This document shows, piece after piece, positions 7,146 through 30,338 of a stretch of 32,000 nt of DNA. Origin of the DNA: Opitutales bacterium (GTDB lineage Bacteria; Verrucomicrobiota; Verrucomicrobiia; Opitutales; PNEW01); contig CBDCNV010000002.1 of NCBI GenBank assembly GCA_965219535.1, positions 2,130,001-2,162,000 of the forward strand, written 5' to 3'. The notes beneath the pieces are model-generated. The model was given only the letters and a program-made list of their open reading frames with translations. It was not told where the DNA came from and did no database searches. Numbering within the stretch: the stretch's first letter is position 1; the number at the start of each line of letters is the position of its first letter. A program made the position numbers and the translations under genes.

Positions 7146-7270
7146 TTTCACTTTTAATTCCACCAACCTTTTATTAGCAAAACTAATTTAATCCTGACAC
7201 AATATTAGATACATACATTATATAGTGCAAGGAAAATGAGGTATTTATCCTATAAAAAAAATGTAAAAAT

Positions 7271-12588: not shown

Positions 12589-14865
12589 TTGAGTGTACCC
12601 CTAAATATTTTAGAATTTACCCGCCACGTCCCTTCATTCACGATCGCTGTAGCGGTGTCAATGATGGGCTTTATGCATACCGCGCATAGCCGAGGATCTG
12701 TCGACGGCTGGTTAAACTGGCGTGGGTCGGAAGAGAATGGAAGTTCTACTGAAATCAATTTACCTGAGCAAATTGAATTAGAAGGCGCCAATCACCTATG
12801 GAGTTATCCCATTTCAGGTGGAGGAACACCGGTGATCGCTGGCAATCGCGTCTTTGTCTTTGCCTACCGAGGTGAAGGTAAAGATTTACAGGAGGCACTG
12901 CTTTGTTTTAAAGCGTCGACCGGTGAGTTAATCTGGGAACGACGCTTCAATGATTTTCTCAGCGATATTATTTATAACCGATATGCGATCGGAGCGCCAG
13001 CGATAGATCCTGACACCGGCAATGTTTATTTACAGACCAGTGCGGGTTTACTCCTGGGCTTTGATCAGAACGGTGAGCATCTATGGGAACATTCAATGCT
13101 CGAAGAGTATGGTCGCTTGACTTTCCCCAATGGCCGCACCGGGGGCCCGGTTATTGACGGCGATCTTGTCATCGTCCACGGCATTACCACCAACTGGGGA
13201 AAAAACGGACCTGCTCGTGATCGTTTCTACGCCTTTGATAAGTATACGGGAGAACTTGCCTGGTATTCACAGCCGGGAGTGCAGCCACAGGACAGCTCTT
13301 TCTCAACTCCAGTTTTCGGCTGGCTTGATGGCCGTCGCGTGTTTTACTGTGGGACCGGTTGTGGTAACATAGTCTGTGTCGATGCCCGTACCGGGCAACC
13401 CTTGTGGCGATTTCAAATGTCTCACGGTGGAGTCAACTCCTCCGTTGTTCTCTATGGTAAAGACAATCTCATAGCAATTCACGGGAAGGAGAATACCGAT
13501 GCCTCAACGATAGGCAGGATGGTTTCACTTAAAATTCCGACGAAACTGCCAGAGGGAGTAAAACTTCCACTGGTGCTCAATCATGATGCCGAAGTCTGGC
13601 GTAACGACTGTGAATCCTTTACGAGTTCATCGGTGCTGGTCGATGACCGAATCTATCAAACCGTCCGCACGGGAGAATTAAAATGTATTGACGCCAATAC
13701 GGGTGAGGAACTCTGGATAAAAAAACTTTCGCCGGACCAGTTGCACGCTTCGCCAGTCTGGGCGGATGATAAACTCTATGTTCCGATGCTCGACGGTAAT
13801 TTTTATATTATTCGGCCCGGTGATACAGACGCAGAGATTCTGGACAGTGTTAAGCTTGAAGGTAATTGTCTCGGGGCGCCCGCGGTTAACGAGGGCCGCA
13901 TTTATGTAATTACGAAAAAGAAACTGTATTGTTTCGGATCAATCGCCCAGCGCACGCATAAGGTAGTGGAGGATAAAACGGCAATAACACGGGGAGCGCC
14001 TGCCGCCCTACAAATTGTTCCCGCGGAGTTTGCCGTGCGATTCGGAGAGAGCGTCGATTTTTCCACGTGGATAGTGGATGCTAACGGTTATCGATTGAAA
14101 AAGGCGAAGGGACTTAGCTGGGATAATTTTTCTCCTTCATTAGTAGAGGTCGATTCATCAGGTACCCTCACCATTCCTTCTTCAGCAACTATCTTTGGGG
14201 GAAATTTAAAAGTAACGAAGAGAAATCTAACTGGAAGCACAAGAGGCCGTATCTTGCCCAATCTCTATTATGAGCAGGATTATGAATCTTTTAAGCTCGA
14301 TAAAATGACACCGAGTGGAGAAGCTTTTGCCTATCCGCCTTCACCCTGGCTGGGGGCGCGACTCCGATGGAGAATTCTCAATAGAGAGGGAAATCAATTG
14401 ATGGAAAATACACTTGAGCGGGTTCTTTTTCAGCGTTCAATGAATTTTATAGGACACTTCGAGATGCGAGAATACACGTTCGAGGCTGATGTCATGAGCG
14501 ATGGAAACCGCCGGGTGATGTCTAACGTAGGGCTGATTAACCAACGCTATTTAATAGCGCTTGTCGGTAACTGGCAAATCCTCGAAGTAGTTTCCAATCA
14601 TGATCGCCTCAAGGAATCCGTGCCGTTTAAATGGAAACCTAAAGTGTGGTATCGATTAAAGACACGTGTCGATGTGGATAAAAACGGCGCGGGCGTGGTG
14701 CGCGTTAAAGCATGGGAGAAAAGTGACCCCGAACCCGATGCATGGACATTGGAAGTCGCGCACGAGCAAGCTCATCAAAAAGGAGCGCCCGGATTATATG
14801 CTTTTTCCCCTCAGAGCCAGAAGCATGTTTATATTGACAATCTTTCAATTAGCCCGAGCGAATAG
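12589..14865 (+). CDS. Secreted PQQ-like beta-propeller protein, paralog 2, with ~300-aa C-terminal extension (Ig-like plus jelly-roll-like region)
   Basis: It has a GWLNWRGS motif and propeller blades (CLDA/CVDARTGQPLW, CIDANTGEELW). The tail includes a LQIVPAEFAVRFGESVDF...LVEVDSSGTLTIP Big_2-like segment and ends GAPGLYAFS....VYIDNLSI, like LamG/DUF1080-type domains. The start is a TTG, chosen because only it supplies a signal-peptide-like N-terminus; the ATG at 12661 is the alternative. Confidence 0.65.
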   Translation: MSVPLNILEFTRHVPSFTIAVAVSMMGFMHTAHSRGSVDGWLNWRGSEENGSSTEINLPEQIELEGANHLWSYPISGGGTPVIAGNRVFVFAYRGEGKDLQEALLCFKASTGELIWERRFNDFLSDIIYNRYAIGAPAIDPDTGNVYLQTSAGLLLGFDQNGEHLWEHSMLEEYGRLTFPNGRTGGPVIDGDLVIVHGITTNWGKNGPARDRFYAFDKYTGELAWYSQPGVQPQDSSFSTPVFGWLDGRRVFYCGTGCGNIVCVDARTGQPLWRFQMSHGGVNSSVVLYGKDNLIAIHGKENTDASTIGRMVSLKIPTKLPEGVKLPLVLNHDAEVWRNDCESFTSSSVLVDDRIYQTVRTGELKCIDANTGEELWIKKLSPDQLHASPVWADDKLYVPMLDGNFYIIRPGDTDAEILDSVKLEGNCLGAPAVNEGRIYVITKKKLYCFGSIAQRTHKVVEDKTAITRGAPAALQIVPAEFAVRFGESVDFSTWIVDANGYRLKKAKGLSWDNFSPSLVEVDSSGTLTIPSSATIFGGNLKVTKRNLTGSTRGRILPNLYYEQDYESFKLDKMTPSGEAFAYPPSPWLGARLRWRILNREGNQLMENTLERVLFQRSMNFIGHFEMREYTFEADVMSDGNRRVMSNVGLINQRYLIALVGNWQILEVVSNHDRLKESVPFKWKPKVWYRLKTRVDVDKNGAGVVRVKAWEKSDPEPDAWTLEVAHEQAHQKGAPGLYAFSPQSQKHVYIDNLSISPSE

Positions 14866-14879
14866 TTAGAATATACATT

Positions 14880-16463
14880 ATGAATAATGTTCTTATAAAT
14901 AAAAGGAGAACTAACGTTTATTTTTCCGGTAAACTTATTCAAGGTTTGCTCCTAATAATGTCCTTGGGACCTGTTACCCATGCAGATGACTGGCCTATGT
15001 GGGGGCGCGACTCGAGTCGCAATATGGTTGCTTCGGTCAAAGGTCTTCCGGATTCATTTGACCTTGGAAAAGCTGAGGAGGGGAGTGAAGAAATAGACCA
15101 GGCAACGACGCGCAATATTCGATGGGTGGCCAAATTAGGTTCGCAAACTTATGGCAACCCAACGGTGACGGGTGGTAAAGTCTATGTCGGAACTAATAAT
15201 GAAGTGCCGCGTGATCCCGACAATGTTGGTGATCGAGGTATCCTCATGTGTTTCGATGAAAAAACGGGTGATTTCCTCTGGCAGCTTAGTGTCCCCAAGC
15301 TCGGGGCGGGTAAAGTAAGCGACTGGGAATATATTGGTATCTGTTCATCACCCGTCGTAATTGATGACTTTGTTTACATCGTCACTAACCGCGGTGAAGT
15401 TCTTTGTCTGGATGTGCACGGAATGAAAAATGGCAACGATGGTCCCTACAATGAAGAAGGCCAATTTATGGCAGGTCCAGGTAAACCGCCGGTGAAGGTT
15501 AAAGACATGCATGCGGACATCATATGGCGTTTTGACATGCGCGATGAACTCGGCGTATTCCCGCACAATATTACGAGTTGTTCCCCTCTCGTTGTTGGAA
15601 ACCATGTTTATGCGACTACTTCTAATGGCGTAGATTGGTCACACACAAACATTCCGGCTCCTTTCTCTCCGAGCTTTATTGTTCTCGATAAAAAAACCGG
15701 AACCCTGCGCGGTGAAGAGGATTCCGGTATTAGCGCCCGCGCATTGCATGCCTGTTGGACATCGCCGACATACGGTGAAGCGAGCGGAAAAGGAATCATA
15801 ATATGGGGCGGATCAGATGGATGGTGCTATGGATATGATCCAGTCCCGGTCAAGGGTGATGACGATTTCAATGTGCTGAATGAACGCTGGCGTTTCGATT
15901 GCAATCCCCCTGAATACCGTACTAAAGACGGTAAACCTATACGATACGCAACATCATTAGGCCCCAGCGAAATTATCGCTACTCCTGTATATTATAATGA
16001 TCGTGCTTATATAGCTATCGGGCAAGATCCCGAACACGGTGATGGTGTCGGTCAATTGAGCTGCATTGATATTTCTAAAGAAGGGGATATTACGAAAGAA
16101 GGTGCAGTTTGGACCTACCAGGGAGTTGGCAGGACGATATCAACCGTTTCAATCGCCGACGGGTTGCTTTACATCGCTGAATACGCGGGCAAGATACATT
16201 GCCTCAATGCGGATACTGGAGAGCCTTATTGGATCTATGACACCCAAAGCCGCATTTGGGGTTCTACACTGGTTAGCGCTGATAGAGTATATGTCGGTAA
16301 TGAAGACGGGGACTTAACGATTTTAAAGGCGGGTAAAGCAATGCAGTTTATTAATAAAATAAATTTCAATGCACCCATCTACAGCAGTCCTATCGCTGCC
16401 AATGGGACCCTCTACGTTGCAAGCCAATCACACCTCTTTGCGATTGGAGGGTCGTCTCCATGA
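14880..16463 (+). CDS. Secreted PQQ-like beta-propeller repeat protein, paralog 3
   Basis: It has a signal-like N-terminus (GKLIQGLLLIMSLGPVTHA), then DDWPMWGRD. Blades include CFDEKTGDFLW, CLNADTGEPYW and GTLYVASQSHLFAIG. Confidence 0.75.
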   Translation: MNNVLINKRRTNVYFSGKLIQGLLLIMSLGPVTHADDWPMWGRDSSRNMVASVKGLPDSFDLGKAEEGSEEIDQATTRNIRWVAKLGSQTYGNPTVTGGKVYVGTNNEVPRDPDNVGDRGILMCFDEKTGDFLWQLSVPKLGAGKVSDWEYIGICSSPVVIDDFVYIVTNRGEVLCLDVHGMKNGNDGPYNEEGQFMAGPGKPPVKVKDMHADIIWRFDMRDELGVFPHNITSCSPLVVGNHVYATTSNGVDWSHTNIPAPFSPSFIVLDKKTGTLRGEEDSGISARALHACWTSPTYGEASGKGIIIWGGSDGWCYGYDPVPVKGDDDFNVLNERWRFDCNPPEYRTKDGKPIRYATSLGPSEIIATPVYYNDRAYIAIGQDPEHGDGVGQLSCIDISKEGDITKEGAVWTYQGVGRTISTVSIADGLLYIAEYAGKIHCLNADTGEPYWIYDTQSRIWGSTLVSADRVYVGNEDGDLTILKAGKAMQFINKINFNAPIYSSPIAANGTLYVASQSHLFAIGGSSP

Positions 16464-16723
16464 ATAAATTAAAATTAGGTGCTAAAGAGGGTGTTTATAT
16501 TTTTCTCATCCTTCTTTTTTTTATCCATCAAGACTACTGGTTCTGGGACAATGGTAGTTTAATAATGGGATTTATTCCCCTTGGCCTCATCTACCATATA
16601 GGTTATTCGATTGTAGCGGCAATCGCCTGGTTCCTGGCGATCAAGTATGCCTGGCCCTCCCATTTGGAAAGTTTCTCGGAGCAAGGGGAAGACTCCACTT
16701 CTACAACAAGCGAGGCACGATGA
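16460..16723 (+). CDS. Small membrane protein, DUF3311-like (symporter-associated)
   Basis: 87 aa with two TM helices and FWDNGSLIMGFIPLGLIYHIGYSIVAAIAWF. ATGA overlaps join it to the preceding propeller gene and to the following SSS transporter, the usual DUF3311-SSS arrangement. Confidence 0.65.
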   Translation: MNKLKLGAKEGVYIFLILLFFIHQDYWFWDNGSLIMGFIPLGLIYHIGYSIVAAIAWFLAIKYAWPSHLESFSEQGEDSTSTTSEAR

Positions 16724-18228
16724 CACCATTGATTATAATTTCTTGTTATCTCATTTTGCTATTTGTTTTGGGGCAGGTTAGCGGTAAGTTTTTTCGTGGA
16801 ACTCCGAATGACTTTTTTGTAGCCAGTAGATCGATAGGGCCATTCCTGCTCTTAATGTCTGTCTTTGGGACCACGATGACGGCTTTCGCCATGGTCGGCA
16901 GTACCGGCGAAGCTTACAGGATTGGAATCGGGACTTATGGTAAAATGGCATCCTGGTCCGCGCTGATTCATTCAGCCTGTTTTTTCTTCATCGGCATTCG
17001 ACTCTGGTCATTTGGAAAGCGTTATGGTTATAAGACCCAGATTCAGTTTTTTCGCGATCGATTCGAAAGCAATGCGATTGGGGTGATTATGTTTCCTATC
17101 CTTGTAGGTCTGGTCATTCCTTACCTCCTAATCGGATTACTGGGGGCTGGTAGTCTTGTTCGAGGAGTAACTACCGGGGCTTTTCCCGAGATCTTCAGCG
17201 AAACACGGGGCGCAGTGCCACCCTGGATTACGGCGGCGATTATTTCATTCGTTGTCCTTACTTATGTATTGCGTGGAGGCGTTCGCAGCGCCGCCTGGGC
17301 AAATACTTTTCAAACCCTGGTTTTTATGGTTATGGGGATTTTCGCTTTCGTAATTATTTCCATTAAGCTGGGGGGCCCGACCGCTGCCAGCCAGATGGCG
17401 GATCCGGTAAAATTGATTCGTGGCGATGCTATTCCCAGCATTCAGTTTTTTACTTACTGTTTTATACCACTCTCTGTGGCGATGTTTCCTCATCTCTTTC
17501 AGCATTGGCTCACCGCTAAGTCCGCGAAGACATTTCGGCTGACTTTGATTGCGCACCCGCTCTTTATTATGATTACCTGGGTTCCCTGCATACTGATTGG
17601 AGTATGGGCAACCGGAGCGGTTATCGATGGGGTACAAATAGTCCCTACGGGTGTTAATCCTAACGCGGTGCTTGGTATAATGGTTGGCAAATTAACGAAT
17701 CCATTAATTGCCGGTCTAGTAGCTTCGGGAGTGCTCGCAGCGATCATGTCGTCGCTCGATTCTCAATTTGTCTGCCTGGGGACGATGTTTACGGAAGACA
17801 TGGTTCTTCATACTTTCAAACTAAACCGACTGACTGAAAATCAGATTTTATGGACCGCTCGCGGGTTTATAACGCTCATTGTTCTCATTACATTTCTTTT
17901 ATCACTCGCCAATCCGGTACAGATATTTTCGCTTGGCGTGTGGTGCTTCAGTGGATTTGGGGCACTCTTTCCGGTAGTTTTTGCCGCTCTATATTGGAAA
18001 CGCGTAACCCGTGCGGGTGCAATTAGCTCGATCATCGTAGCGGCGATCACCTGGTTTTATCTCTTTCGCGAATCAGGTTATGGGATCAACCGTGGTTATC
18101 TGATCGCAGACGCCATGCCAGTGGTCTTTGTATTTATAGCTTGCATGCTGACATTAGTTATCGTTTCTCTTCTGACGAAACCCCCCTCAGAGGAAACGTT
18201 GAATAAATTTTTTCCTAAAGAATTGTAA
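16720..18228 (+). CDS. Sodium:solute symporter (SSS) family transporter
   Basis: 502 aa with ~13 hydrophobic helices and an SSS-like N-terminal region (FFVASRSIGPFLLLMSVFGTTMTAFAMVGSTGEAYRIGIG). The substrate cannot be assigned from sequence alone. Confidence 0.8.
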   Translation: MTPLIIISCYLILLFVLGQVSGKFFRGTPNDFFVASRSIGPFLLLMSVFGTTMTAFAMVGSTGEAYRIGIGTYGKMASWSALIHSACFFFIGIRLWSFGKRYGYKTQIQFFRDRFESNAIGVIMFPILVGLVIPYLLIGLLGAGSLVRGVTTGAFPEIFSETRGAVPPWITAAIISFVVLTYVLRGGVRSAAWANTFQTLVFMVMGIFAFVIISIKLGGPTAASQMADPVKLIRGDAIPSIQFFTYCFIPLSVAMFPHLFQHWLTAKSAKTFRLTLIAHPLFIMITWVPCILIGVWATGAVIDGVQIVPTGVNPNAVLGIMVGKLTNPLIAGLVASGVLAAIMSSLDSQFVCLGTMFTEDMVLHTFKLNRLTENQILWTARGFITLIVLITFLLSLANPVQIFSLGVWCFSGFGALFPVVFAALYWKRVTRAGAISSIIVAAITWFYLFRESGYGINRGYLIADAMPVVFVFIACMLTLVIVSLLTKPPSEETLNKFFPKEL

Positions 18229-18282
18229 ACACCCTTTAACGTAACCGTAATCCTGTACGTTTTAGGTCATCAATAAAAGACG

Positions 18283-18463
18283 AACGCGGTAGGGACACCC
18301 CGTTCCACCAATATTGCATTATTCATTTTTCGTTATTATGTATTTCAGATTTAGAGGGTGGAACGGGCTGCCTGACCGCCATAGCCTTGGCGAAGGCTGG
18401 TTCCCAGCGCGCTTCTTTTTTTTAATACTAAAAATAAACGCGGTGAGACACTACGTTCCACCA
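18283..18463 (+). repeat. Two copies of the AACGCGGTAGGGACAC..CGTTCCACCA dispersed repeat plus an internal 11-bp inverted repeat and a T8 tract
   Basis: Copy 1 is at 18283-18310 and copy 2 (aacgcggtgagacactacgttccacca) at 18437-18463. cccgttccacc (18299-18309) pairs with ggtggaacggg (18357-18367). ggctggttcccagcgcgcttc + T8 (18395-18423) matches 3521-3547. Confidence 0.65.
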
Positions 18464-18516
18464 AAATAGCTTTAATTAATTATATTCTATTATATAGAAA
18501 TCTGATGTAGTGACGA

Positions 18517-18546
18517 TTGATAAAAGTAATTATAATTTGATATAAT
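18517..18546 (+). promoter_or_regulatory. Sigma-70-like promoter candidate (TTGATA - 18 nt - TATAAT) immediately upstream of the 13-gene operon
   Basis: ttgata at 18517-18522 and tataat at 18541-18546; the ATG of the first gene is at 18555. The region is very AT-rich, so chance matches are likely. Confidence 0.3.
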
Positions 18547-18554
18547 AACCAAAG

Positions 18555-19628
18555 ATGAAATTAGAATCAGAAATCGAGAAAGCATCCGCTCAACTTGATG
18601 CTCACGTGCGTGAAATCGTACAATGGCATTTTTCTCCTGAGTCGGGATCAGCCTTCTGGTTGGATTGGGCAGCCAATGCGGGGTGGGATCCCTGCCAGGA
18701 TATTGAATCTTTTGCCGACCTCATGCGATTTCCCCACTTCGATGATCTATGGTTGCGCAATGAGCCCAATGAGCGCTGGATACCCAAGGCCTACAAGGGA
18801 AGACCCTTTATGATTTTTGAAACGGGGGGCACGACCGGTCTACCGAAGCAACGCATTAGTTGGGAAGACCACTTGACCGATTATATTGAATTTTCAACGG
18901 GTCTCGATGATCAGGCTTTTCCTCTCGGTGGGAATTGGCTGATGCTGGGACCGACCGGACCTCGTCGGTTGCGTATCTCCATCGAGCATCTTGCGAATCT
19001 TAGAGGAGGTTCCTGTTATTTTGTCGATCTGGATGCGCGATGGGTCAAAAAACTTATCGCGGCAAAAGATTTCAAACAAGCTAACGCTTACAAAGACCAT
19101 GTCGTTCAACAGGGCGTGGAGCTACTTAAAAATCGAAAGATAACCTGTCTCTTTACTACACCTAAATTGCTCGAAGCTATCGGTGAGGAGATTTCTCTCG
19201 CTGATATTGGAGTTAAAGGTGTTTTTTGTGGTGGCACGACGATGACTCCACAATCGGTTCGATTCTTAGTGGAAGAAGTATTAGAAAATAGCGTCGCCTT
19301 CGCTCCTACATACGGTAACACACTTATGGGCTTAGCGCGGAGTCGACCGCTTCGCCCTGAAGATAATTTTAGTATTACATACTATGCACCTGAACCCCGC
19401 GCTGTCCTGCGAATTGTTCAAAATGACGACACAGAAAAACCGGTTGATTATGATAATTACGGTCGTGTGGAACTGACAACGCTGACACGTGAATTTTTTA
19501 TGCCTCGGTTCCTGGAGAGAGATGAGGCCATTCGCCGCCAACCCTGCGAAGAATTTCCCTGGGATGGAGTCGGTGATGTAAGGCCGTTTGGCGCATTGGA
19601 TGATAAAATCGTAGAGGGCGTTTATTAG
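18555..19628 (+). CDS. LuxE/PaaK-like adenylate-forming enzyme homolog lacking the usual C-terminal subdomain
   Basis: It has P-loop-like FETGGTTGLPKQR (compare (S/T)SG(S/T)TGxPK), YGNTLMGLA (compare YGxTE) and GRVELTTLTREFFMPRFLERDEA (compare PaaK GELV.T.L....PL.RYRTGD). The protein ends ~70-80 aa earlier than PaaK-type ligases. Confidence 0.55.
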   Translation: MKLESEIEKASAQLDAHVREIVQWHFSPESGSAFWLDWAANAGWDPCQDIESFADLMRFPHFDDLWLRNEPNERWIPKAYKGRPFMIFETGGTTGLPKQRISWEDHLTDYIEFSTGLDDQAFPLGGNWLMLGPTGPRRLRISIEHLANLRGGSCYFVDLDARWVKKLIAAKDFKQANAYKDHVVQQGVELLKNRKITCLFTTPKLLEAIGEEISLADIGVKGVFCGGTTMTPQSVRFLVEEVLENSVAFAPTYGNTLMGLARSRPLRPEDNFSITYYAPEPRAVLRIVQNDDTEKPVDYDNYGRVELTTLTREFFMPRFLERDEAIRRQPCEEFPWDGVGDVRPFGALDDKIVEGVY

Positions 19629-19650
19629 TTAAGACTGACATAAAAGAGGA

Positions 19651-21090
19651 ATGGAACAATTAACACATTTATCCGCTTTAAGGCATGGCACTCCCTATCA
19701 GAGTCTGGATACAGATGAGATAGTAGATATCCGCTATGGCAAACCCCTGGCAAACGTCAGCCAGGTGAACGCGGGATTGATCAAACGTGATTCTCGCAAT
19801 AATCGCTCGGCCAGAGAAGCGCTCTCATCGGTAAATTCGGAGCAATTACTACAGATTTGCAGGGAAGCGGGCGATTTGTTTTTAAAGTCTGAACTCCCGA
19901 TAGATTCTACTGAGACACGACAAAGCCCAGGGGCTTTCATTGAATCACTCTCAGCTACGACTGGTCTGCCTCACACGCTTTGCAAATTAAATATGGAAAA
20001 GATTCATTCTGTTCTTACGAATATGGAACAGATATTGAGCGGGTTAAGCCGGGGATTACCACCCGCTATATTTGATACTTTTTTAAGTGAACACGAGGGA
20101 ATGGAAGTTTGCTTTTATCCGGTTGCCGACAGTCTGAGTATTGTCCTGCCAAGTAATTCTCCCGGTGTTAATTCTCTTTGGCTTCCCGCTCTCGCAATGA
20201 AAATTCCCGTCATCATTAAACCGGGGCGAGAAGACCCCTGGACACCGACACGTATCATTCAAGCCTTATATGTGGCAGGTCTTCCAAGAGAAGCGATCAG
20301 TTTTTATCCGACCGACCACGAGGGGGCGAACGTTATACTTGAAAACTGCGACCTGGGTATGGTGTTTGGCGGTGAAAGTACGGTTAATCAATATGCGAAT
20401 GACTCTCGCATTCAAATCCATGGCGCTGGTCGAAGTAAAGTGCTTATCGGTAATGATTGTGTCGATCGCTGGCCGAGTTACATCGATGTTATCACCGATT
20501 CGATTGTCGCAAATGGAGGGCGTAGTTGTATTAACGCTTCAACGATTGTCACGCCGAAATTTGGAAAAGAAATTGCCGAGGAATTGGCGAAGCGTGTCAG
20601 TGGGATTCAAGCGCTTTCATTAGAGGACGATGGCGCGCAACTTGCCGGTTTTGCCAATCCCAAAATGGCCGAGGCCATAGACGCAATAATTGAAAATGGA
20701 TTGGAGTCTGAAGGCGCAGAAGATATCACCGGTCGCATGCGGGATGGCCCACGCAAAGTTCAAAACAATGGGCAGACCTATCTATTACCGACGATAGTGA
20801 ACTGTGAGAGTTTCGAACATCCACTGGCGAACTGTGAGTTGTTGTTTCCTTACGCCAGTGTCGTGGAGATACCGCAGGATGAAATGTTGGAGAGTATTGG
20901 TCCTTCATTGGTTGTCACGGCGATAACAAATAATGAGAGTTGGATAACGGAGCTTTTAAAATCTTCACAGATTGATCGGCTTAATATTGGTGCAACCCCA
21001 ACCAGTGTAGTTTACTGGGATCAACCGCATGAAGGTAATCTCTTCGAATTCCTATACCGACGAAGAGCCATTCATCAAGCGAAGGCATAA
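19651..21090 (+). CDS. Aldehyde-dehydrogenase-superfamily protein, LuxC-like acyl-(CoA/protein) reductase candidate
   Basis: The 479-aa size fits. It has a Cys-loop GGRSCINAS (Cys ~293) and a cofactor-binding region SIVLPSNSPGVNSLWLPALAMKIPVIIKPG. The segment aligned to ALDH ELGGKSP reads IHGAGRSK, so the hydrolytic Glu is absent. It sits directly after the LuxE-like gene. Confidence 0.6.
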   Translation: MEQLTHLSALRHGTPYQSLDTDEIVDIRYGKPLANVSQVNAGLIKRDSRNNRSAREALSSVNSEQLLQICREAGDLFLKSELPIDSTETRQSPGAFIESLSATTGLPHTLCKLNMEKIHSVLTNMEQILSGLSRGLPPAIFDTFLSEHEGMEVCFYPVADSLSIVLPSNSPGVNSLWLPALAMKIPVIIKPGREDPWTPTRIIQALYVAGLPREAISFYPTDHEGANVILENCDLGMVFGGESTVNQYANDSRIQIHGAGRSKVLIGNDCVDRWPSYIDVITDSIVANGGRSCINASTIVTPKFGKEIAEELAKRVSGIQALSLEDDGAQLAGFANPKMAEAIDAIIENGLESEGAEDITGRMRDGPRKVQNNGQTYLLPTIVNCESFEHPLANCELLFPYASVVEIPQDEMLESIGPSLVVTAITNNESWITELLKSSQIDRLNIGATPTSVVYWDQPHEGNLFEFLYRRRAIHQAKA

Positions 21091-21097
21091 CACAATT

Positions 21098-22252
21098 ATG
21101 ATTGGCTTTGAAGCAAAGGCAGCGCCTCGAATTATTTATGGGGTCGACGCCGTTGATGAGATCGGTTCACTGGTCAAGTCAATCGGCGCGAGCAGGGTAT
21201 TACTTGTAACTGATCCAGGCATTGTATCCGCCGGCCACATGGACCGCGTTGCAAAAAGACTGCGCCAATCAAGTATAGACTTTTGTGCGTTCACTGATGT
21301 TGAAGAAAATCCATCGACGAGAGAGGTAGAGCGTTGCGTAGAGACCGCGCGTGCGGCAGAAGTGGATTTGATAATCGGGTTGGGTGGAGGAAGCAGCCTC
21401 GATACCGCCAAGGGCTGTAATTTTATTTTATCTAACGGTGGCAAAATCGAGGATTACAAAGGATACGGCAAGGCTTCAAAGCCCCTGTTACCTTTCATCG
21501 CGATTCCCACAACGACAGGGACGGGAAGCGAATGTCAGTCTTACGCTTTGATTGCAGAAGAAGATTCGCATGAGAAAATGGCGTGCGGTGATCCCAAGGT
21601 GATGGCAAAAATTGCGATATTAGATCCCAGTCTGGCTAAATCCCAACCACGTTTTGTCATCGCATGCACCGGCTACGATGCAATGGCCCATGCAATTGAG
21701 TCAGCCGTATCGCTTAATCACAACGAGTTGTCTTTGCTTTACTCGCGAGAAGCGTTTCGCTTGGTTAATGCTAATCTGGATATCGTTTTGGCTTCTTCAG
21801 AGATAGAAGCTCTGGGTGCCATGCTTCTTGGTGCGGCATACGCGGGTCTCGCAATAGAGAACAGTATGCTCGGGAGCGCCCATTCAGCAGCAAATCCATT
21901 GACTGCAAAATTTAATGTTATCCATGGTAATGCGGTGGGGATGATGCTGCCGCATGTAATGCGCTACAATGCAGTTGAGGCAAGCGCCGCTAAAAATTAT
22001 GCTCTTTTGGCGACCACTGTCGGAATTGCGACAAACACAGACACCCAAGAGGAAGCATGTGAACGACTGATTTCGCGAGTAGAAGATCTACTCGAGCAGT
22101 CGGCGTTATCCACTGCCCTTTCAGATTTCAAAGTGTCTCGCAATGATATACCTGATCTAGCTGCAGATGCATCTAAACAATGGACCGCTCTTTTTAATCC
22201 ACGTCCCGTATCAGCTGAAGATTTCGTCACCCTTTACGAGACCGTGCTTTAA
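21098..22252 (+). CDS. Iron-containing (group III) alcohol dehydrogenase
   Basis: GLGGGSSLDTAKG, IPTTTGTGSE and metal-site His motifs (DAMAHAIES; GSAHSAANPL...HG). The start is set at the ATG at 21098, 7 nt after the preceding TAA. The listed ORF start at 21029 overlaps the upstream gene and adds a non-homologous extension. Confidence 0.85.
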   Translation: MIGFEAKAAPRIIYGVDAVDEIGSLVKSIGASRVLLVTDPGIVSAGHMDRVAKRLRQSSIDFCAFTDVEENPSTREVERCVETARAAEVDLIIGLGGGSSLDTAKGCNFILSNGGKIEDYKGYGKASKPLLPFIAIPTTTGTGSECQSYALIAEEDSHEKMACGDPKVMAKIAILDPSLAKSQPRFVIACTGYDAMAHAIESAVSLNHNELSLLYSREAFRLVNANLDIVLASSEIEALGAMLLGAAYAGLAIENSMLGSAHSAANPLTAKFNVIHGNAVGMMLPHVMRYNAVEASAAKNYALLATTVGIATNTDTQEEACERLISRVEDLLEQSALSTALSDFKVSRNDIPDLAADASKQWTALFNPRPVSAEDFVTLYETVL

Positions 22253-22309: not shown

Positions 22310-23515
22310 ATGGTACGAATTAAAAGATATGCGTTAGTTTTTATATTGAGCTCCATTATGGAAGTAGGTTCGGGGCCCACATTGAATGGCGATGTCGGAA
22401 TATCAGAACCTGCAATCGCGATTAAGAAAACCGAGATATTAACTAAATACAAAAATCATCCCAATAGTTGGCCTATGCACCGGGGTGGACCCCAATTAAA
22501 CGGGCAGGTAAATGAGTCGGTGGCGGAAAAGTTAAAACTCCACTGGGTATTTGATACCGGTGCTCCCATAAAATCATCTGCCGCGGTTGAAGATGATCTA
22601 ATCTTTATTGGGTCCGACACGGGTAAAGTGCACGCCTTGGAAATTAATTCCGGCCTTGAGATCTGGTCTTTCGAGACTGGTGGGCAGGTAGAAGCGACAC
22701 CTTGTGTAGTAAATGATACCGTATACATAGGATCGTCCGATAACTTTTTTTATGCGCTCGCCACAATGACCGGCGAATTAAAATGGAAATATCGGACTGA
22801 GGGCAGAATACTAGGAGCTGCCAATTGGGTATTAAATCCAGATGGAAACGGGTACTGGATACTTTTCGGCAGTTATGATGGAAGTTTGTACTGTGTGGAT
22901 GCGGAGACAGGTCAAACAGTCTGGAAGCATAAAACAGAATACTATGTCAACGGCACGCCGGCAATCACCCAGGGTGGGGAAGTGGTCTTTGGTGGATGCG
23001 ATTCCTATATTTATATCTTGCGTCTCAGTGATGGCGCCGAGCTGCGTAAGATAGATTCAGGAGCATACATTGCCTCTTCAATTGCTCTCGCTGATGGAAA
23101 TGGTTATGTCGGGCACTATAATAATGAAGTGCTCGCCTTTGATCTTAAGACGGTAGAAATTCTTTGGACTTACAGTACTAGTAGCTTCCCTTTTTTTTCA
23201 TCAGCAGCAATTACTTCGGACAGTGTTGTTATCGGAAGCCGGGATAAACAATTGCATTGTATTAACCGATTTACCGGTGAAGGGCTCTGGCGATTTCAAA
23301 CCCAGGGGACTATCGACAGTTCACCCATTGTATGTGGCAACTTTATAGTATTTGGATCAAGTGATGGCCGACTTTACTCAGTTAACCTTTCGAATGGGAA
23401 AATAGTGTGGTCTTACGACATTGGTGCCCCGGTAACCGCATCTCCGGCGTTCGCACACGGTAAAATCGTAATCGGTGCAGAAGATGGGTCTGTCTATGTG
23501 TTTGACGCTAGCTAG
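22310..23515 (+). CDS. Secreted PQQ-like beta-propeller repeat protein, paralog 4, embedded in the biosynthetic operon
   Basis: It has a signal-like N-terminus MVRIKRYALVFILSSIMEV, then SWPMHRGGPQLNG. Blades include ALEINSGLEIW, CVDAETGQTVW, CINRFTGEGLW and GSVYVFD. Confidence 0.7.
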   Translation: MVRIKRYALVFILSSIMEVGSGPTLNGDVGISEPAIAIKKTEILTKYKNHPNSWPMHRGGPQLNGQVNESVAEKLKLHWVFDTGAPIKSSAAVEDDLIFIGSDTGKVHALEINSGLEIWSFETGGQVEATPCVVNDTVYIGSSDNFFYALATMTGELKWKYRTEGRILGAANWVLNPDGNGYWILFGSYDGSLYCVDAETGQTVWKHKTEYYVNGTPAITQGGEVVFGGCDSYIYILRLSDGAELRKIDSGAYIASSIALADGNGYVGHYNNEVLAFDLKTVEILWTYSTSSFPFFSSAAITSDSVVIGSRDKQLHCINRFTGEGLWRFQTQGTIDSSPIVCGNFIVFGSSDGRLYSVNLSNGKIVWSYDIGAPVTASPAFAHGKIVIGAEDGSVYVFDAS

Positions 23516-23536: not shown

Positions 23537-24874
23537 ATGGACTTAGAAGCCATCGAAAAACTTCCAACGGCGGGAAAAGAAAAAACTGCCGCGGGGAATT
23601 ACTTTGTCGCTAACTATCCACCGTTTTCTTTTTGGAACACTGACGATATTATTCAAGTTGATCAGATCCTCAACTCAGAAGCAGGTGCAGACATCCCGCT
23701 GGGTATCTATTACCATATCCCTTTTTGTCGAAAGCGTTGTCACTTTTGCTACTTTCGCGTCTACACCGATAAGAACGCAGCTCAAATAGCGCGCTACCTG
23801 GATGCGACTTTAAAAGAGTTAAACGCTTATGCGCAAAAACCATACTTGCGTTCCCGAAAACCAAAATTCATTTACTTCGGGGGTGGAACACCCTCTTATC
23901 TTTCTGCAAAGCAACTCACCTCGTTAACCGATCGCATGAAAGCGATTACCCCGTGGGATGAAGTGGAAGAAGTCACTTTTGAGTGTGAGCCAGGGACCCT
24001 GAGCGAAAAGAAACTCGAGGTTATAAAGAAATTAGGGACAACGCGACTGAGCCTGGGAATCGAAAATTTCAGTGATCACATTCTTGAAATTAATGGTCGG
24101 GCGCATCACTCTAAAGAAGTATTCGAGGCGTATGCTTATGCGAAATCACTCAGTTATCCGCAAATAAATATCGATCTCATTGCCGGTATGGTTGGCGAGA
24201 CGGATGAAAATTGGAAGGAGTGTATTAGCAAGACCCTTGAGTTGCAGCCTGACAGTGTGACGATCTATCAAATGGAGATTCCGTTTAACACGACAATCTT
24301 TAAAGAGATGACGGCCGAAGGTCGAGAGGTGGCGCCAATTGCCGATTGGAAAACAAAACGTGAATGGTTAAACTACGGTTTCGAGCAGCTTGAAGCGGCA
24401 GGTTATAAAGTTACGAGTGGATACACTGCCGTGCGTGACCCAAAAAAAACTCGCTTTGTCTACCGTGATGAACTTTGGACGGGAGCTGATCTCCTTGCAC
24501 TGGGTGTAGCTTCCTTTGGACAAATCGGGGGTGTACATTATCAAAACCTTACCCAGTTCGATCAATACCTGTCGGAAATTGAAAGTGACAAATTACCGGT
24601 GACCCGCGCATTCGTCACTTCGCAAGAAGAAAAAATGATTCGCGAACTCATCCTTCAACTGAAACTGGGAAAAGTGAGTAATGCTTATTTTAAAAGTAAA
24701 TTCGATATTGATATCACGCAGCGATTTAAAGCGCAATTAGAGGCATTGAGCGATCACGGCTGGTTGGAAATAAAAAACGATTATCTATATCTCACGCGTG
24801 ACGCGTTGTTACGTGTCGATTCTCTTCTGCACAGTTTCTTTCTACCTAAACACCAAAACGCACGTTATACCTAA
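23537..24874 (+). CDS. HemN-like radical SAM enzyme (coproporphyrinogen-III-oxidase family; possibly a class C methyltransferase-type enzyme)
   Basis: It has the CX3CX2C cluster motif in YYHIPFCRKRCHFCYF and GGGTPS, and the 445-aa size with a HemN_C-like tail fits. No other heme biosynthesis genes are nearby. Confidence 0.75.
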   Translation: MDLEAIEKLPTAGKEKTAAGNYFVANYPPFSFWNTDDIIQVDQILNSEAGADIPLGIYYHIPFCRKRCHFCYFRVYTDKNAAQIARYLDATLKELNAYAQKPYLRSRKPKFIYFGGGTPSYLSAKQLTSLTDRMKAITPWDEVEEVTFECEPGTLSEKKLEVIKKLGTTRLSLGIENFSDHILEINGRAHHSKEVFEAYAYAKSLSYPQINIDLIAGMVGETDENWKECISKTLELQPDSVTIYQMEIPFNTTIFKEMTAEGREVAPIADWKTKREWLNYGFEQLEAAGYKVTSGYTAVRDPKKTRFVYRDELWTGADLLALGVASFGQIGGVHYQNLTQFDQYLSEIESDKLPVTRAFVTSQEEKMIRELILQLKLGKVSNAYFKSKFDIDITQRFKAQLEALSDHGWLEIKNDYLYLTRDALLRVDSLLHSFFLPKHQNARYT

Positions 24875-24889
24875 TTATTCATCTGTAAT

Positions 24890-25447
24890 ATGGATGGTCC
24901 AACAAAAGAAGTGACTTCTGAAATGCTTTACCCGCTGTCACTGTTTTGTGATAGCGTCAATCAGGAAGCTCTTGGAATTCAAGTTATCGAAGAATCAGAG
25001 CTCGGGGAACCCGATCGCAGTCTACTCGCACATTGCAGCGATATGACGACAAAACTCGAGACCTTTCACCACGGCACTATTGAACTCCTGGTGTTACAGT
25101 GCTCGATGGAAAGTGATTCGCACCGTCGCGAAGTTGTCCTACGAATTAAAGGAAGTGAAAAACCGGTAGAATATGGTGCAATCGATATAAATCTCGCAGC
25201 ATTTAATGAACAGGTTCGTGAGATAATTATTCGGGGTCAGCGCCCGTTGGGAGGAATCTTAACTGACTTTAATATAAATTACAAAAGCGAGCCGATGGCA
25301 TTCATCAAAGTTACCTCTAATGCCAACATTAATAAGGCACTTGGGCTCACTGAATCGCGGGTCCTTTATGGGAGGCGCAATGTGTTGAAAGGAGACTTGG
25401 GAATAGACATAGCGCATATTATTGAGATTTTACCTCCTTCTCAGTGA
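24890..25447 (+). CDS. Chorismate pyruvate-lyase (UbiC) family protein
   Basis: By-eye alignment to E. coli UbiC, recalled from memory: LLAHCSDMTTKLE vs LLLEDSMTKRFE; RREVVLRIKGSEKPVEYG vs LREILLCADGEPWLAG; QRPLGGIL vs KTPLGRYL; LYGRRNVL...IIEILPP vs LWGRRSRL...LTELFLP. Confidence 0.6.
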   Translation: MDGPTKEVTSEMLYPLSLFCDSVNQEALGIQVIEESELGEPDRSLLAHCSDMTTKLETFHHGTIELLVLQCSMESDSHRREVVLRIKGSEKPVEYGAIDINLAAFNEQVREIIIRGQRPLGGILTDFNINYKSEPMAFIKVTSNANINKALGLTESRVLYGRRNVLKGDLGIDIAHIIEILPPSQ

Positions 25448-25466: not shown

Positions 25467-26726
25467 ATGGATGGAAAACACCGATATGATGTTCTTATCA
25501 TAGGGGGTGGTCCCGCTGGATCGACCGCGGCGGCAATACTTGCGGAGAAAGGACATAAAGTTCTCATTCTTGAAAAAGAGAAATTTCCGCGCTATCACAT
25601 CGGTGAGTCTCTTATGCCCTTTTGCTATTTCACTCTTGAGCGGCTAGGTGTCGTCAATGAATTGAGAAAATCAGCTTATCCAAAAAAATACAGTGTTCAA
25701 TTTATTCGTGAGACCGGTGAAGTTTCGCAACCGTTTTACTTTTTTCAACATTTCGATCATGAAGCTTCAACCACTTGGCAGGTTCCGCGTTCCGAATTTG
25801 ACTTAATGCTGCTCAATAACGCGCGTGACCGGGGAGCGGAAGTCCGCGAGCAGACAACGGTGAAGCGATTGATTAAAGAAGAGGGGGTTGTGGTTGGGGT
25901 AGAGGCAGTGACCGACAGTGGTGAACAATTGGACTTAAAAGCACCAGTAACTATCGATGCCTCCGGACGTGATTGTGTATGTGCGGCCAAAGAAGGATGG
26001 CGTGTTCGCGATCCGGAGCTGAATAAAATATCGATTTGGACCTATTACAGTGGAGCAAAGCGTGATCCGGGCCTTGATGCCGGTGCAACGACGATTGCAT
26101 ATATCGCAGAGAAGGGTTGGTTCTGGTATATCCCACTGCCAGATGATAGGGTGAGTGTGGGAGTCGTTGCGGATCAAAAATACCTCTATAACGAATCCCG
26201 AGATCGAAAGACGATATTTGAACGTGAGATTAAGTGTAACCCCTGGATAAAAGACCACCTCGATGGCGGTAATCAATTCGGGGCGTACTACGTAACCGGA
26301 GAATACTCTTATCGATCACGCTATTGTGCTGCAGATGGCCTCGTCCTTGTAGGCGATGCCTTTGCTTTTCTAGATCCGGTTTTTTCTTCGGGCGTGTTTC
26401 TCGCTCTCTGGAGCGGCGAGAAAGCGGCAGATGCGGTTGATAACGCTTTGACTGAGGGAGATTGTACGAGCGCACGCTTTGCTGATTATGGTGAAGAACT
26501 CTGTCACGGTATTGAAGCTATGCGAAAACTTGTTTATGCCTTTTATGATTTGAATTTCAGCTTTGGAAAGCTTCTTCATAAAAATCCTCACCTGCGAGGA
26601 AAACTTACCGATGGTTTGATCGGTGATCTCTTCAAAAAAGACTTTGATGAGCTGTTCTCCGCCATCGGTCAATCGGCAACCCTTCCCGAACCGCTCAGTT
26701 ATGGCCGCCCAACACTTAATAAATGA
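25467..26726 (+). CDS. FAD-dependent halogenase-like oxidoreductase (flavin-dependent halogenase / geranylgeranyl-reductase superfamily)
   Basis: YDVLIIGGGPAGS (GxGxxG), KFPRYHIGESL, GWFWYIPL (WxWxIP) and FAFLDPVFSSG (Fx.Px.Sx.G). The start is set at the ATG at 25467, with GAGGAG 15 nt upstream; the longer ORF from 25422 overlaps the upstream gene. Confidence 0.65.
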   Translation: MDGKHRYDVLIIGGGPAGSTAAAILAEKGHKVLILEKEKFPRYHIGESLMPFCYFTLERLGVVNELRKSAYPKKYSVQFIRETGEVSQPFYFFQHFDHEASTTWQVPRSEFDLMLLNNARDRGAEVREQTTVKRLIKEEGVVVGVEAVTDSGEQLDLKAPVTIDASGRDCVCAAKEGWRVRDPELNKISIWTYYSGAKRDPGLDAGATTIAYIAEKGWFWYIPLPDDRVSVGVVADQKYLYNESRDRKTIFEREIKCNPWIKDHLDGGNQFGAYYVTGEYSYRSRYCAADGLVLVGDAFAFLDPVFSSGVFLALWSGEKAADAVDNALTEGDCTSARFADYGEELCHGIEAMRKLVYAFYDLNFSFGKLLHKNPHLRGKLTDGLIGDLFKKDFDELFSAIGQSATLPEPLSYGRPTLNK

Positions 26727-28021
26727 ATATTTTATTTATAACACCGGGGACAGGAAGTTATTATTGTGGTGTTTGCATGCGAGATAACGCGTTGGTCACG
26801 GCACTGCGTCAACTGGGTCACAATGCTAAAATGCTGCCGATTTATTTACCGATTGTGACTGACGAACAATCAGTGAGTGATGAAATGCCTATTTTTTTTG
26901 GGGGTATAAATGTGTATCTACAGCAAAAACTCTCTTTTTTCCGGCATACACCGACCTGGATGGACAATATCTTTAATAACCGGAGTCTACTTCGATTAGC
27001 CAGTCACCGCAGCAGTATGACTGAGGGTGCTGAATTGGGCTCTATGACTGTATCCATGCTGGAAGGTGAAACTGGATTGCAAGCTAAAGAGATAACGAAA
27101 CTTGTAAATTGGCTCTGCAATGAGGAGCCACCGGATATTATTTGTCTCTCAACTGCACTGCAAGTTGGGATGGCGCGTCGCATTAAAGAGGCAATGCATG
27201 TCCCCGTCGTCTGCTTTTTCCAGGGAGAGGATAGTTTTCTCGATGCGCTCGATAATCCCTATAGTGACAAGGCCTGGATGACGCTTCGCGAACGGGTTGT
27301 GGATATTGATGTCTTCATCGCGCCGAGCGCTTATTTCGCAAACCTAATGAAGCAGCGGCTCCAATTGGATGAGAATAAAATGCGGGTTATTCCTAACGGG
27401 ATTAATCTGGAGGGATACTCGCCGTCTTCGAAAATCCCCAATCCGCCGGTGATTGGGTTTTTATCGCGAATGATGGAAAATAAGGGAATGGATTTACTTG
27501 TTAACGCCTTTATTTTATTAAAAAGACGTGAGACTGCCAGGCAATATAAATTAAGTATTGCCGGGGTGGTGACAGCGAAAGATAAACAATTTATCGAAGA
27601 ACAAAAAGCTAAATTAAAAAGCGCTGGATTAAGTTCGGAGGTGGAATTCCTTCCCAATCTCAATCGAGAGGATAAATTAGAATTTCTAAAAAAGCTCTCT
27701 CTCTTTTCTGTTCCAGCCAGGTATGGAGAAGCTTTTGGGCTCTATTTATTAGAAGCAATGGCTGCAGGTGTTCCCGTGGTTCAACCCCGTCATGCGGCTT
27801 TTCCAGAACTAATCGAAGCTACGAGTGGGGGTAGACTTTGCGAACCGAATGATCCTCAATCTTTGGCTGACAGTTGGGAGGACATTTTGGCGAATCCTGA
27901 AGAGGCTCGTTCGATCGGGCTGCGCGGTCGTCAATCGGTGATTGAAAAATTTTCAATTCACGACATGGCTAAAACAATCGAACTGACTTGTCGGAAATTA
28001 GTGCAATCAATTGAGAGTTGA
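26723..28021 (+). CDS. Glycosyltransferase family 4 (GT-B fold)
   Basis: It has the E-x7-E motif region GEAFGLYLLEAMAAGVPVV and an N-terminal MNILFITPGTGSYYCG... The ATGA overlap with the upstream gene suggests translational coupling. Confidence 0.8.
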   Translation: MNILFITPGTGSYYCGVCMRDNALVTALRQLGHNAKMLPIYLPIVTDEQSVSDEMPIFFGGINVYLQQKLSFFRHTPTWMDNIFNNRSLLRLASHRSSMTEGAELGSMTVSMLEGETGLQAKEITKLVNWLCNEEPPDIICLSTALQVGMARRIKEAMHVPVVCFFQGEDSFLDALDNPYSDKAWMTLRERVVDIDVFIAPSAYFANLMKQRLQLDENKMRVIPNGINLEGYSPSSKIPNPPVIGFLSRMMENKGMDLLVNAFILLKRRETARQYKLSIAGVVTAKDKQFIEEQKAKLKSAGLSSEVEFLPNLNREDKLEFLKKLSLFSVPARYGEAFGLYLLEAMAAGVPVVQPRHAAFPELIEATSGGRLCEPNDPQSLADSWEDILANPEEARSIGLRGRQSVIEKFSIHDMAKTIELTCRKLVQSIES

Positions 28022-28039
28022 TGTAATAGATTAATAATA

Positions 28040-28495
28040 ATGGCACACGAATTTAAATTAACAAGAATTGTAGAGTTTGCCGAGACAGACATGGCAGGCA
28101 TTATGCACTTTTCAAACTTCTTTCGTTTGATGGAGGAAACCGAGCACGTGTTCTTTCGTTCACTCGGAATCTCTGTGCACCAGGAAATAGGTAATCAGCT
28201 AATCGGATGGCCGCGTGTGAACGCCACCTGCGAATATTCACATCCGTTAAAGTTCGAAGATAAAGTGGAAATTCATCTCCTGGTTAAGGAAATCCGAGAA
28301 AAATCGATAACTTATCAATACCAGTTCCGAAATATTGACGGTGATGACACGTTTGCTGTTGCGCGGGGAGAGATCACGACGATCTGTGTCCAATTAAATG
28401 TGAAAAATGGTGATATGGAATCGATTGCGATTCCTTCTCAGATACTCGATAAGATTGATTCCGCACCTCCTGAAATGCTAAAGGTGCAAGACTGA
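28040..28495 (+). CDS. Acyl-CoA thioesterase, 4-hydroxybenzoyl-CoA thioesterase / YbgC (hotdog) family
   Basis: RIVEFAETDMAGIMHFSNFFRLMEETEHVFFRSLG carries the catalytic-Asp motif typical of 4HBT class I / YbgC. The 151-aa size fits. Confidence 0.75.
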   Translation: MAHEFKLTRIVEFAETDMAGIMHFSNFFRLMEETEHVFFRSLGISVHQEIGNQLIGWPRVNATCEYSHPLKFEDKVEIHLLVKEIREKSITYQYQFRNIDGDDTFAVARGEITTICVQLNVKNGDMESIAIPSQILDKIDSAPPEMLKVQD

Positions 28496-28551
28496 ACAAT
28501 CAGTATTTTTCAGTTAATAGTATGAAACACAAAAAAGGAGCTAAACCGAAT

Positions 28552-30317: not shown

Positions 30318-30338
30318 AATAAAAGAGGATCATAAATA

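Follow-up and report, generated by a model that had tools for sequence, protein, structure and literature searches.

A candidate EhpF/EhpG-type carboxylate reductase next to an iron-containing alcohol dehydrogenase in a conserved gene cluster of an Opitutales bacterium

We analyzed a window of 32,000 nucleotides from an Opitutales bacterium (Verrucomicrobiota; assembly GCA_965219535.1, contig CBDCNV010000002.1, positions 2,130,001 to 2,162,000), and all positions given here are those of this whole stretch. The work concerns three consecutive genes, a candidate module for converting a carboxylic acid into an alcohol, that lie within a run of + strand genes extending from about 11.3 kb to the window end. 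Gene 1 (18555–19628, +, 357 aa) encodes a truncated ANL adenylating enzyme of the EhpF family, gene 2 (19651–21090, +, 479 aa) an EhpG-like protein of the aldehyde dehydrogenase (ALDH) fold that is predicted to be an acyl-thioester reductase, and gene 3 (21098–22252, +, 384 aa) a group III iron-containing alcohol dehydrogenase (Fe-ADH). Spacers of 22 nt (genes 1 and 2) and 7 nt (genes 2 and 3) separate them, a Shine-Dalgarno sequence (AAGAGGA) stands immediately 5' of the gene 2 ATG, and the base composition of the trio is that of the adjoining genes. The mechanical open reading frame (ORF) of gene 3 opens at 21029; its start was set at the in-frame ATG 21098, 7 nt past the gene 2 stop, because homologues align from there. 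Three co-directional ORFs with this close junction between the second and the third had been described in an original prediction made from the sequence letters. What it observed is confirmed, and its interpretation, a stepwise module of LuxE/LuxC type extended by an alcohol dehydrogenase (ADH), is partly supported.

Among solved structures, the match of gene 1 is EhpF (3L2K/3HGU; E 7e-44, residues 16–357 against 22–366), after which the next matches reach only E around 1. When a profile of the gene 1 family was compared with the PDB, EhpF was recovered at 5.7e-96, phenylacetate-CoA ligases at 1e-5 and 4-chlorobenzoate-CoA ligase at 5e-4, while LuxE was absent from the matches with E<=10. The Pfam AMP-binding model scores 27.2 bits in gene 1, below its cut-off of 29.9. 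The protein carries the ANL P-loop (89-ETGGTTGLPKQ), TYGNTL and the hinge ERDEA, and in the family alignment the P-loop (as TGGTTGxPK), YGNT and the hinge are invariant. Its chain stops 35 residues past the hinge, and the alignment with EhpF (366 aa) runs from end to end. Gene 1 is thus an adenylating enzyme of the ANL type that lacks the C-terminal subdomain, as the reading of its core motifs and early stop had suggested. The PaaK-like ligase of the same window (29061–30317), which served as an internal control, does have its C-terminal subdomain (PF14535). Only two cysteines, C154 and C225, are invariant in the gene 1 clade; Cys331 of the window protein is not conserved, and the clade alignment contains no conserved C-terminal acyl-accepting Cys of the LuxE type. 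The LuxE family model (PF04443), against which the original prediction had proposed to score the proteins, gave no match with gene 1 at E<=0.1 and none with any of 15 relatives at E<=1; the family found instead is that of EhpF.

Gene 2 is matched by EhpG, the ALDH-like neighbor of EhpF on a phenazine plasmid, at 3e-38 by BLASTP (residues 92–477), and by the equivalent haloarchaeal ALDH-like protein at 7e-35; classical ALDH structures are found at about 1e-10 by sequence and at 4e-24 with a profile. PF00171 (ALDH) scores 59 bits in gene 2 and matches all 18 relatives that were scanned. PF05893 (LuxC), the other family model that had been put forward, did not match gene 2 and matched two of these 18 relatives weakly (best E 3.8e-4). 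LuxC was likewise outside the top 60 PDB sequence matches of gene 2 and the top 50 fold matches of its AlphaFold2 (AF2) model, in which the ALDH fold is complete (pLDDT 89.5; TM-score against ALDHs about 0.74).

The catalytic residues of gene 2 set it apart from the ordinary members of this superfamily. The predicted catalytic Cys lies in GGRSCINAS (Cys293), and HMMER pairs IHGAGRS, from the motif IHGAGRSK (256–263), with LELGGKS, which in a classical ALDH holds the general-base Glu. An alignment of 121 clade sequences (gene 2 with the 120 homologues listed for it) shows no variation at Asn169 or Cys293 and has His (His257) throughout the column equivalent to Glu268, so that both the catalytic Cys and the altered general-base position noticed in the letters are borne out by alignment. 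In more distant EhpG-like proteins this column is Gln, Tyr, Arg or Leu and never Glu, and Asn169, Cys293, Glu396 and His460 are invariant in all the EhpG-like proteins examined. The full Rossmann cofactor domain and the Lys190-Pro-Gly segment are also kept. A base elsewhere in the structure may conceivably take the place of Glu268. Gene 2 belongs to an EhpG-like branch of the ALDH superfamily and is neither an ordinary hydrolytic ALDH nor a member of the LuxC family.

These results bear directly on whether the trio could be a fatty-acid reductase of the LuxCDE type, making fatty aldehydes and alcohols for lipids or waxes from fatty acids supplied by the hotdog thioesterase encoded at 28040. 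The architecture would be the same, a truncated ANL enzyme (LuxE) with an ALDH-fold enzyme that has a catalytic Cys (LuxC), the weak PF05893 matches in two relatives point in that direction, and the thioesterase, a family 4 (GT4) glycosyltransferase and a LolD/MacB-like exporter encoded downstream could fit lipid handling. We nevertheless regard this as quite unlikely. PF04443 is unmatched in all 15 relatives, LuxE does not appear in the PDB profile matches, LuxC is missing from the top matches by sequence and by fold, the conserved C-terminal acyl-accepting Cys is absent, and all the identifiable relatives occur in aryl-acid contexts. The thioesterase, which had been proposed to play the part of LuxD, is of the 4HBT/YbgC type and not of the alpha/beta LuxD fold; it lies 6 kb away, beside the PaaK-like ligase, and rarely co-occurs with the trio (5 of 66 loci centered on gene 1 and 3 of 25 centered on gene 2). 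It partners the PaaK-like CoA ligase more naturally than genes 1 and 2. What stands of the original interpretation is the stepwise chemistry, for which LuxE/LuxC is a mechanistically apt analogy; the family labels themselves were rejected on PDB profile searches, the fold search and Pfam scans that took in 15 relatives of gene 1 and 18 of gene 2 besides the proteins themselves.

Gene 3 presents no such ambiguity. PF00465 (6.9e-51) and PF25137 (4.2e-34) both match, the protein aligns over its full length with the structures of methanol dehydrogenase, 1,3-propanediol dehydrogenase and FucO, and it retains both the Asp/His/His/His metal ligands and the GGGS motif. It is an intact group III Fe-ADH, the class to which it had been assigned on its sequence. 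By inspection, it also has a FucO-like VTD motif, typical of NAD-type enzymes.

Database relatives of genes 1 and 2 are abundant, at least 8000 for each, and among the best 120 listed the identities are 68–96% for gene 1 and 54–95% for gene 2, most of these sequences coming from other phyla. A scan of GTDB species found at least 597 loci; those listed are mostly from Verrucomicrobiota, Planctomycetota and Armatimonadota, with one from Omnitrophota. To describe gene order we used the best 80 loci centered on gene 1, from a genome set with one genome per GTDB species, and 80 independent metagenome loci centered on gene 2. Across phyla gene 1 shows 62–72% identity in loci that had been picked by gene 1 similarity. 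In the first set, gene 2 lies downstream of gene 1 in 38 of 66 loci (immediately so in 30), with gene 3 coming after gene 2 in 29 of 37. In the second, gene 1 is directly upstream of gene 2 in 36 of 58, and gene 3 is found within 3 kb downstream of gene 2 in 46 of 52. Genes 2 and 3 therefore form a very tight pair, about 60% of loci have genes 1 and 2 side by side, and the adjacency of the trio is not due to chance. The most frequent breakpoint of the cluster falls between genes 1 and 2, and 35 of 61 loci have a DUF3311 gene with a sodium:solute symporter (SSF) on the upstream side of gene 1.

This commonest break is what would be expected if the adjacency had no functional meaning and the trio merely spanned a junction of two modules, one of secreted beta-propellers, symporter and gene 1 and the other of genes 2 and 3 with the genes downstream. 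We consider such a coincidence highly improbable. The first two genes still adjoin each other in about 60% of loci in several phyla, and they are homologous to EhpF and EhpG, a pair that recurs side by side and with translational coupling in unrelated clusters of four phyla or domains. In phenazine clusters, pairs of an EhpF-like and an ALDH-like gene are adjacent, overlapping or abutting. A Streptomyces cluster that also encodes DAHP synthase and PabB (aminodeoxychorismate synthase) has one such pair, and a Burkholderia cluster has another, there together with PhzD/PhzE-like genes and a polyketide synthase. On a plasmid of the haloarchaeon Halalkalicoccus jeotgali (NC_014299, 5508–9566), an SSF transporter, an EhpF-like gene and an ALDH-like gene follow one another in the order seen in the bacterial cluster, so the link with the transporter is either ancient or was transferred as a unit.

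The wider family offers further hints of function. Among 50%-identity representatives, the EhpF-like family comprises 1421 clusters at E<=1e-3, and NCBI labels some relatives 'arylcarboxylate reductase'. EhpF-like domains also occur fused to a class-III aminotransferase (824 aa) and to a Zn-dependent ADH (725 aa). These fusions suggest natural acid-to-amine and acid-to-alcohol enzymes, and they back the production of an aldehyde because both fusion partners use aldehydes. As for EhpF itself, Bera and co-workers reportedly described it in 2010 as an atypical ANL enzyme without the C-terminal domain. Its deletion reportedly made phenazine-1,6-dicarboxylate accumulate, and EhpF and EhpG were reportedly proposed to form 6-formylphenazine-1-carboxylate through an adenylate. 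A literature search on 'arylcarboxylate reductase' and on the biochemistry of EhpF/EhpG surfaced only annotations and reference lists.

With moderate confidence, and on the strength of sequence comparison, we read the trio as a carrier-free carboxylate reductase of the EhpF/EhpG type followed by an aldehyde reductase, which together would take an acid through an aldehyde to an alcohol. From the computed family memberships, the missing subdomain, the residue pattern, the Fe-ADH ligands and the gene order we infer the individual chemical steps, their direction, the nicotinamide cofactor and the substrate. Gene 1 would use ATP to convert a free carboxylate into an acyl-adenylate. Gene 2 would then take the acyl group directly from the acyl-AMP onto Cys293, with Asn169 forming the oxyanion hole; direct transfer is the simpler model because the gene 1 family has no conserved C-terminal Cys. 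The thioester on Cys293 would be spared hydrolysis, since the general-base Glu is replaced by the invariant His257, and would be reduced by NAD(P)H to the aldehyde, from which the Fe-ADH of gene 3 would form a primary alcohol. The kind of system is known as a proposal; what is new is its genomic context, a co-linear cluster of about 20 genes.

Nothing in these enzyme classes fixes the direction by itself, all three being reversible in principle, and the same genes could work oxidatively to conserve energy. An alcohol would then be oxidized to the aldehyde and on to the Cys293 thioester, attack by AMP would give the acyl-AMP, and gene 1 in reverse (acyl-AMP and PPi to acid and ATP) would release an acid that leaves through the symporter. 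Loss of the general-base Glu would stop hydrolysis equally well in this direction, the link with a symporter and periplasmic propellers looks more catabolic than biosynthetic, and the NAD-type VTD motif of gene 3 also fits. Yet the aminotransferase and ADH fusions suggest a family that produces aldehydes, SSF transporters are importers, and EhpF reportedly acts reductively, its knock-out accumulating the dicarboxylic acid. We know of no ALDH-fold enzyme that forms an acyl-AMP, and we judge the oxidative direction unlikely.

The loose linkage of genes 1 and 2 could also be explained if the pair transferred acyl groups without reducing them, the acyl-AMP or the Cys293 thioester being passed to an amine, an alcohol or CoA and gene 3 acting on a separate substrate. 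In 28 of 66 gene 1 loci gene 2 is not adjacent, which would leave room for other partners or a solo function, truncated ANL enzymes can release reactive adenylates, and the CoA-acylating methylmalonate-semialdehyde dehydrogenase is among the best classical ALDH matches of gene 2. Such a role is nonetheless improbable, given that gene 2 keeps the Rossmann cofactor domain, the Lys190-Pro-Gly segment and Glu396, that the link of about 90% between genes 2 and 3 argues for an aldehyde passed to the ADH, and that the partners fused to EhpF-like domains use aldehydes.

The carboxylate reductase reading gains a possible substrate from the surroundings of the trio. Positions 11330–32000 form one co-linear cluster of about 20 genes whose order is the same in Ca. 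Hinthialibacter antarcticus (L091), in Planctomycetes and in other Verrucomicrobiota. Upstream lie three propellers of the PQQ_2 type, prop1 (11330–12568, +) and then prop2 (758 aa) and prop3 (527 aa; both within 12589–16463, +; PF13360, PF13570), followed by a DUF3311 small membrane protein and the SSF symporter (16460–18228, +; closest to PutP/PanF/MctP, below the cut-off). The N-termini of the propellers look like signal peptides by inspection, and the proteins are predicted to be secreted; no genes are linked to gene 1 more tightly than prop2 and prop3, which lie upstream of it in 49 of 61 loci. In prop2 (12589–14865, +) the Pfam matches are N-terminal, and the C-terminal stretch of about 280 residues has no match at E<=0.001.

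Downstream of the trio come a fourth PQQ_2-type propeller, prop4 (22310–23515, +), a HemN-like radical SAM enzyme (23537–24874, +), which is present in 12 of the 25 gene 2 loci with enough downstream sequence, a protein of the chorismate-lyase fold, p185 (24890–25447, +, 185 aa), and a flavin-dependent halogenase (25422 or 25467 to 26726, +). The stretch 26723–32000 (+) encodes the GT4 glycosyltransferase and then the 4HBT thioesterase, a 180-aa multi-pass membrane protein (28522–29064, +) without a Pfam or NCBIfam match, the PaaK-like CoA ligase already described, here again on the + strand, and a LolD-like ABC ATPase followed by an FtsX/MacB-type permease (31031 onward, +) that runs off the window. 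At 55–68% identity across phyla, the 180-aa protein is among the most conserved of the cluster.

Between the symporter and gene 1 lies an AT-rich spacer of 327 nt (18229–18554). By consensus matches only, it holds a terminator-like hairpin with a T run (18396–18408, +) and a strong, TG-extended promoter-like site (18517–18546, +; 11 of 12 positions). As this site ends 8 nt 5' of the gene 1 ATG, the transcript may be leaderless. The spacer also contains two direct repeats of about 35 nt (18294 and 18447) with an inverted partner at 18357–18379. It is lineage-specific, because other phyla have no such gap, the stop of the symporter gene there overlapping the start of gene 1. An Rfam scan of the spacer gave no match at E<=1, and neither Rfam families nor tRNAs were found across the whole window.

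Two features outside the cluster are worth recording. A full-length OvoA (5-histidylcysteine sulfoxide synthase and methyltransferase) is encoded at 8447–10576 (+; TIGR04344 705 bits, TIGR04345 313 bits), and the organism can probably make ovothiol. On the opposite strand, positions 3735–7166 (-) encode a protein of 1143 aa with autotransporter-type beta-strand repeats and a C-terminal PEP-CTERM-like motif (VPEPS...), in a stretch of 52–54% GC where the rest of the window has 42–48%.

The two genes most informative about the substrate are p185 and the halogenase. An AF2 model of p185, built with database homologues (pLDDT 88), has as its top Foldseek match the DUF98 protein AF1396 (2NWI; 1e-7), and matches E. 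coli UbiC at 2e-4. CndH, PltA, ChlB4 and CmlS match the halogenase with E values between 1e-49 and 1e-54, and its catalytic Lys and WxWxIP motif are both intact. In Planctomycetales strain 10988, BaaA and BaaB are proposed to supply the 3,5-dibromo-4-hydroxybenzoate from which 3,5-dibromo-p-anisic acid is made (bioRxiv 10.1101/723874). The arrangement there is the same, a chorismate-lyase-like gene followed at once, in the same orientation, by a flavin halogenase gene, and the top structural relatives (2NWI and UbiC for the lyase; CmlS and PltA for the halogenase) are shared with the window pair, a likeness of gene arrangement and structural relatives. The reductase genes and the wider cluster are not described in that paper. 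The occurrence of a BaaA/BaaB-like pair here suggests that a halogenated metabolite is widespread in bacteria of the Planctomycetes-Verrucomicrobia-Chlamydiae (PVC) group. Because this pair lies downstream of the trio, 4-hydroxybenzoate and its halogenated analogues, already named in the original prediction, gain weight as substrate candidates; by this analogy either form is a plausible substrate, and an aromatic acid derived from chorismate is the most probable kind of substrate. Alternatively, the symporter may import the acid. No anti-correlation between the symporter and the chorismate-lyase pair, as might separate imported from home-made substrate, was evident in the table of gene 1 loci.

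Several points weigh against reading the trio as a carboxylate reductase with an ADH, or against parts of that reading. The identity of gene 1 across phyla (62–72%, in loci chosen by gene 1 similarity) is unusually high for a tailoring enzyme. Gene 1 is tied more closely to the secreted propellers (49 of 61 loci) than to gene 2 (38 of 66), there are operons that end at gene 1, and gene 1 is missing nearby in 17 of 58 gene 2 loci, so that the pair is often split. The precedent itself, the EhpF/EhpG step, reportedly rests on knock-outs, a structure and bioinformatics. In gene 2, KPGRED aligns ambiguously with the KPSE of ALDHs, either Arg193 or Glu194 falling on Glu195 depending on the ALDH template, and because the templates disagree on this counterpart we dropped a reading of NADH against NADPH from the motif. 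On the side of the substrate, only about 40% of the gene 2 loci with enough flank contain the lyase and halogenase genes, which for that reason are not a universal substrate source. The sole metabolite reported from the planctomycete with BaaA/BaaB also keeps its carboxyl group (bioRxiv 10.1101/723874).

A larger role for the trio can be imagined, to which we give little credence. It could be the reductive core of one ancient pathway of about 20 genes, found in Verrucomicrobiota, Planctomycetota, Armatimonadota and candidate phyla, that would make a molecule derived from hydroxybenzyl alcohol. This would be halogenated in some lineages, glycosylated and exported by the MacB-like system to the periplasm, where it would serve the PQQ-like propellers as, for example, a new redox cofactor or a substrate, the propellers being of an 'empty quinoprotein' type.

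Carrier-free carboxylate reductases are rare and barely characterized, and their small size and independence from phosphopantetheinylation make them attractive for biocatalysis. The clade described here is by far the most widespread and most conserved version we have seen, and it offers many natural variants to test. It also marks a gene cluster that is apparently a common trait of PVC bacteria and their allies, and that ties secreted PQQ-like propellers to aromatic-acid chemistry, with a real halogenase included. The identity of the substrate would probably reveal the role of the cluster as a whole.

Among known systems, the closest is EhpF/EhpG of Pantoea agglomerans, from the pathway of D-alanylgriseoluteic acid (EhpF structures 3L2K, 3HGU and 3HGV). 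Gene 1 is a full-length homologue of EhpF (about 36% identical to a plasmid-borne copy) in which the same C-terminal subdomain is missing, and gene 2 a near full-length homologue of EhpG, in the same gene order, with the Cys kept and the general-base Glu gone. The proposed chemistry is also the same (acid to acyl-AMP to aldehyde), and in that pathway the aldehyde likewise ends as a hydroxymethyl group, in griseoluteic acid. The differences are in detail and setting. The Glu268 column is Gln in EhpG and an invariant His in the window clade, which also shows much greater conservation (62–72% identity for gene 1 across phyla) and a much wider distribution, and a dedicated Fe-ADH directly follows the pair. 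The neighbors here are secreted propellers, a symporter, a halogenase and an exporter, and neither the phzA-G core nor other phz-type genes were found among the ORFs of the window.

LuxC/LuxE follows the same two-protein logic, a truncated PaaK-like ANL enzyme with an ALDH-fold Cys enzyme, and sets the mechanistic precedent that such a combination can reduce acids. According to the LuxC–LuxE structure paper, LuxE is likewise missing the C-terminal subdomain of ANL enzymes, and its Cys364 passes the acyl group on to Cys296 of LuxC, after which NADPH reduces it. LuxE acylates itself at that C-terminal Cys364 (in P. phosphoreum), whereas the gene 1 clade has no conserved counterpart, and LuxC is without the Asn and Glu of ALDHs, whereas gene 2 keeps Asn169 and Glu396. 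Gene 1 has no detectable sequence membership in the Lux families, that of gene 2 is marginal, and luxAB and luxD are absent here.

The type I carboxylic acid reductases, with domains A-T-R (Nocardia Car, fungal Lys2), likewise use ATP and NADPH to bring an aryl or alkyl acid to an aldehyde through an adenylate and a thioester, but do so in one polypeptide with a phosphopantetheinyl carrier domain and a reductase domain of the SDR type. The first two genes of the trio would accomplish this as two proteins, with no carrier, no phosphopantetheinyl transferase and a reductase of the ALDH fold; neither PP-binding nor SDR/NAD_binding_4 domains were detected in genes 1–3 or in any window ORF scanned. 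In ProB/ProA, two separate proteins also share the task, an activated carboxylate being passed to a Cys enzyme of the ALDH superfamily that yields an aldehyde. There the activation differs, as ProB is an amino-acid kinase that phosphorylates its substrate and not an ANL enzyme, and we found no specific sequence relationship with it; what the trio would have in common with ProB/ProA is the hand-over of an activated acid from one protein to a second, ALDH-like one.

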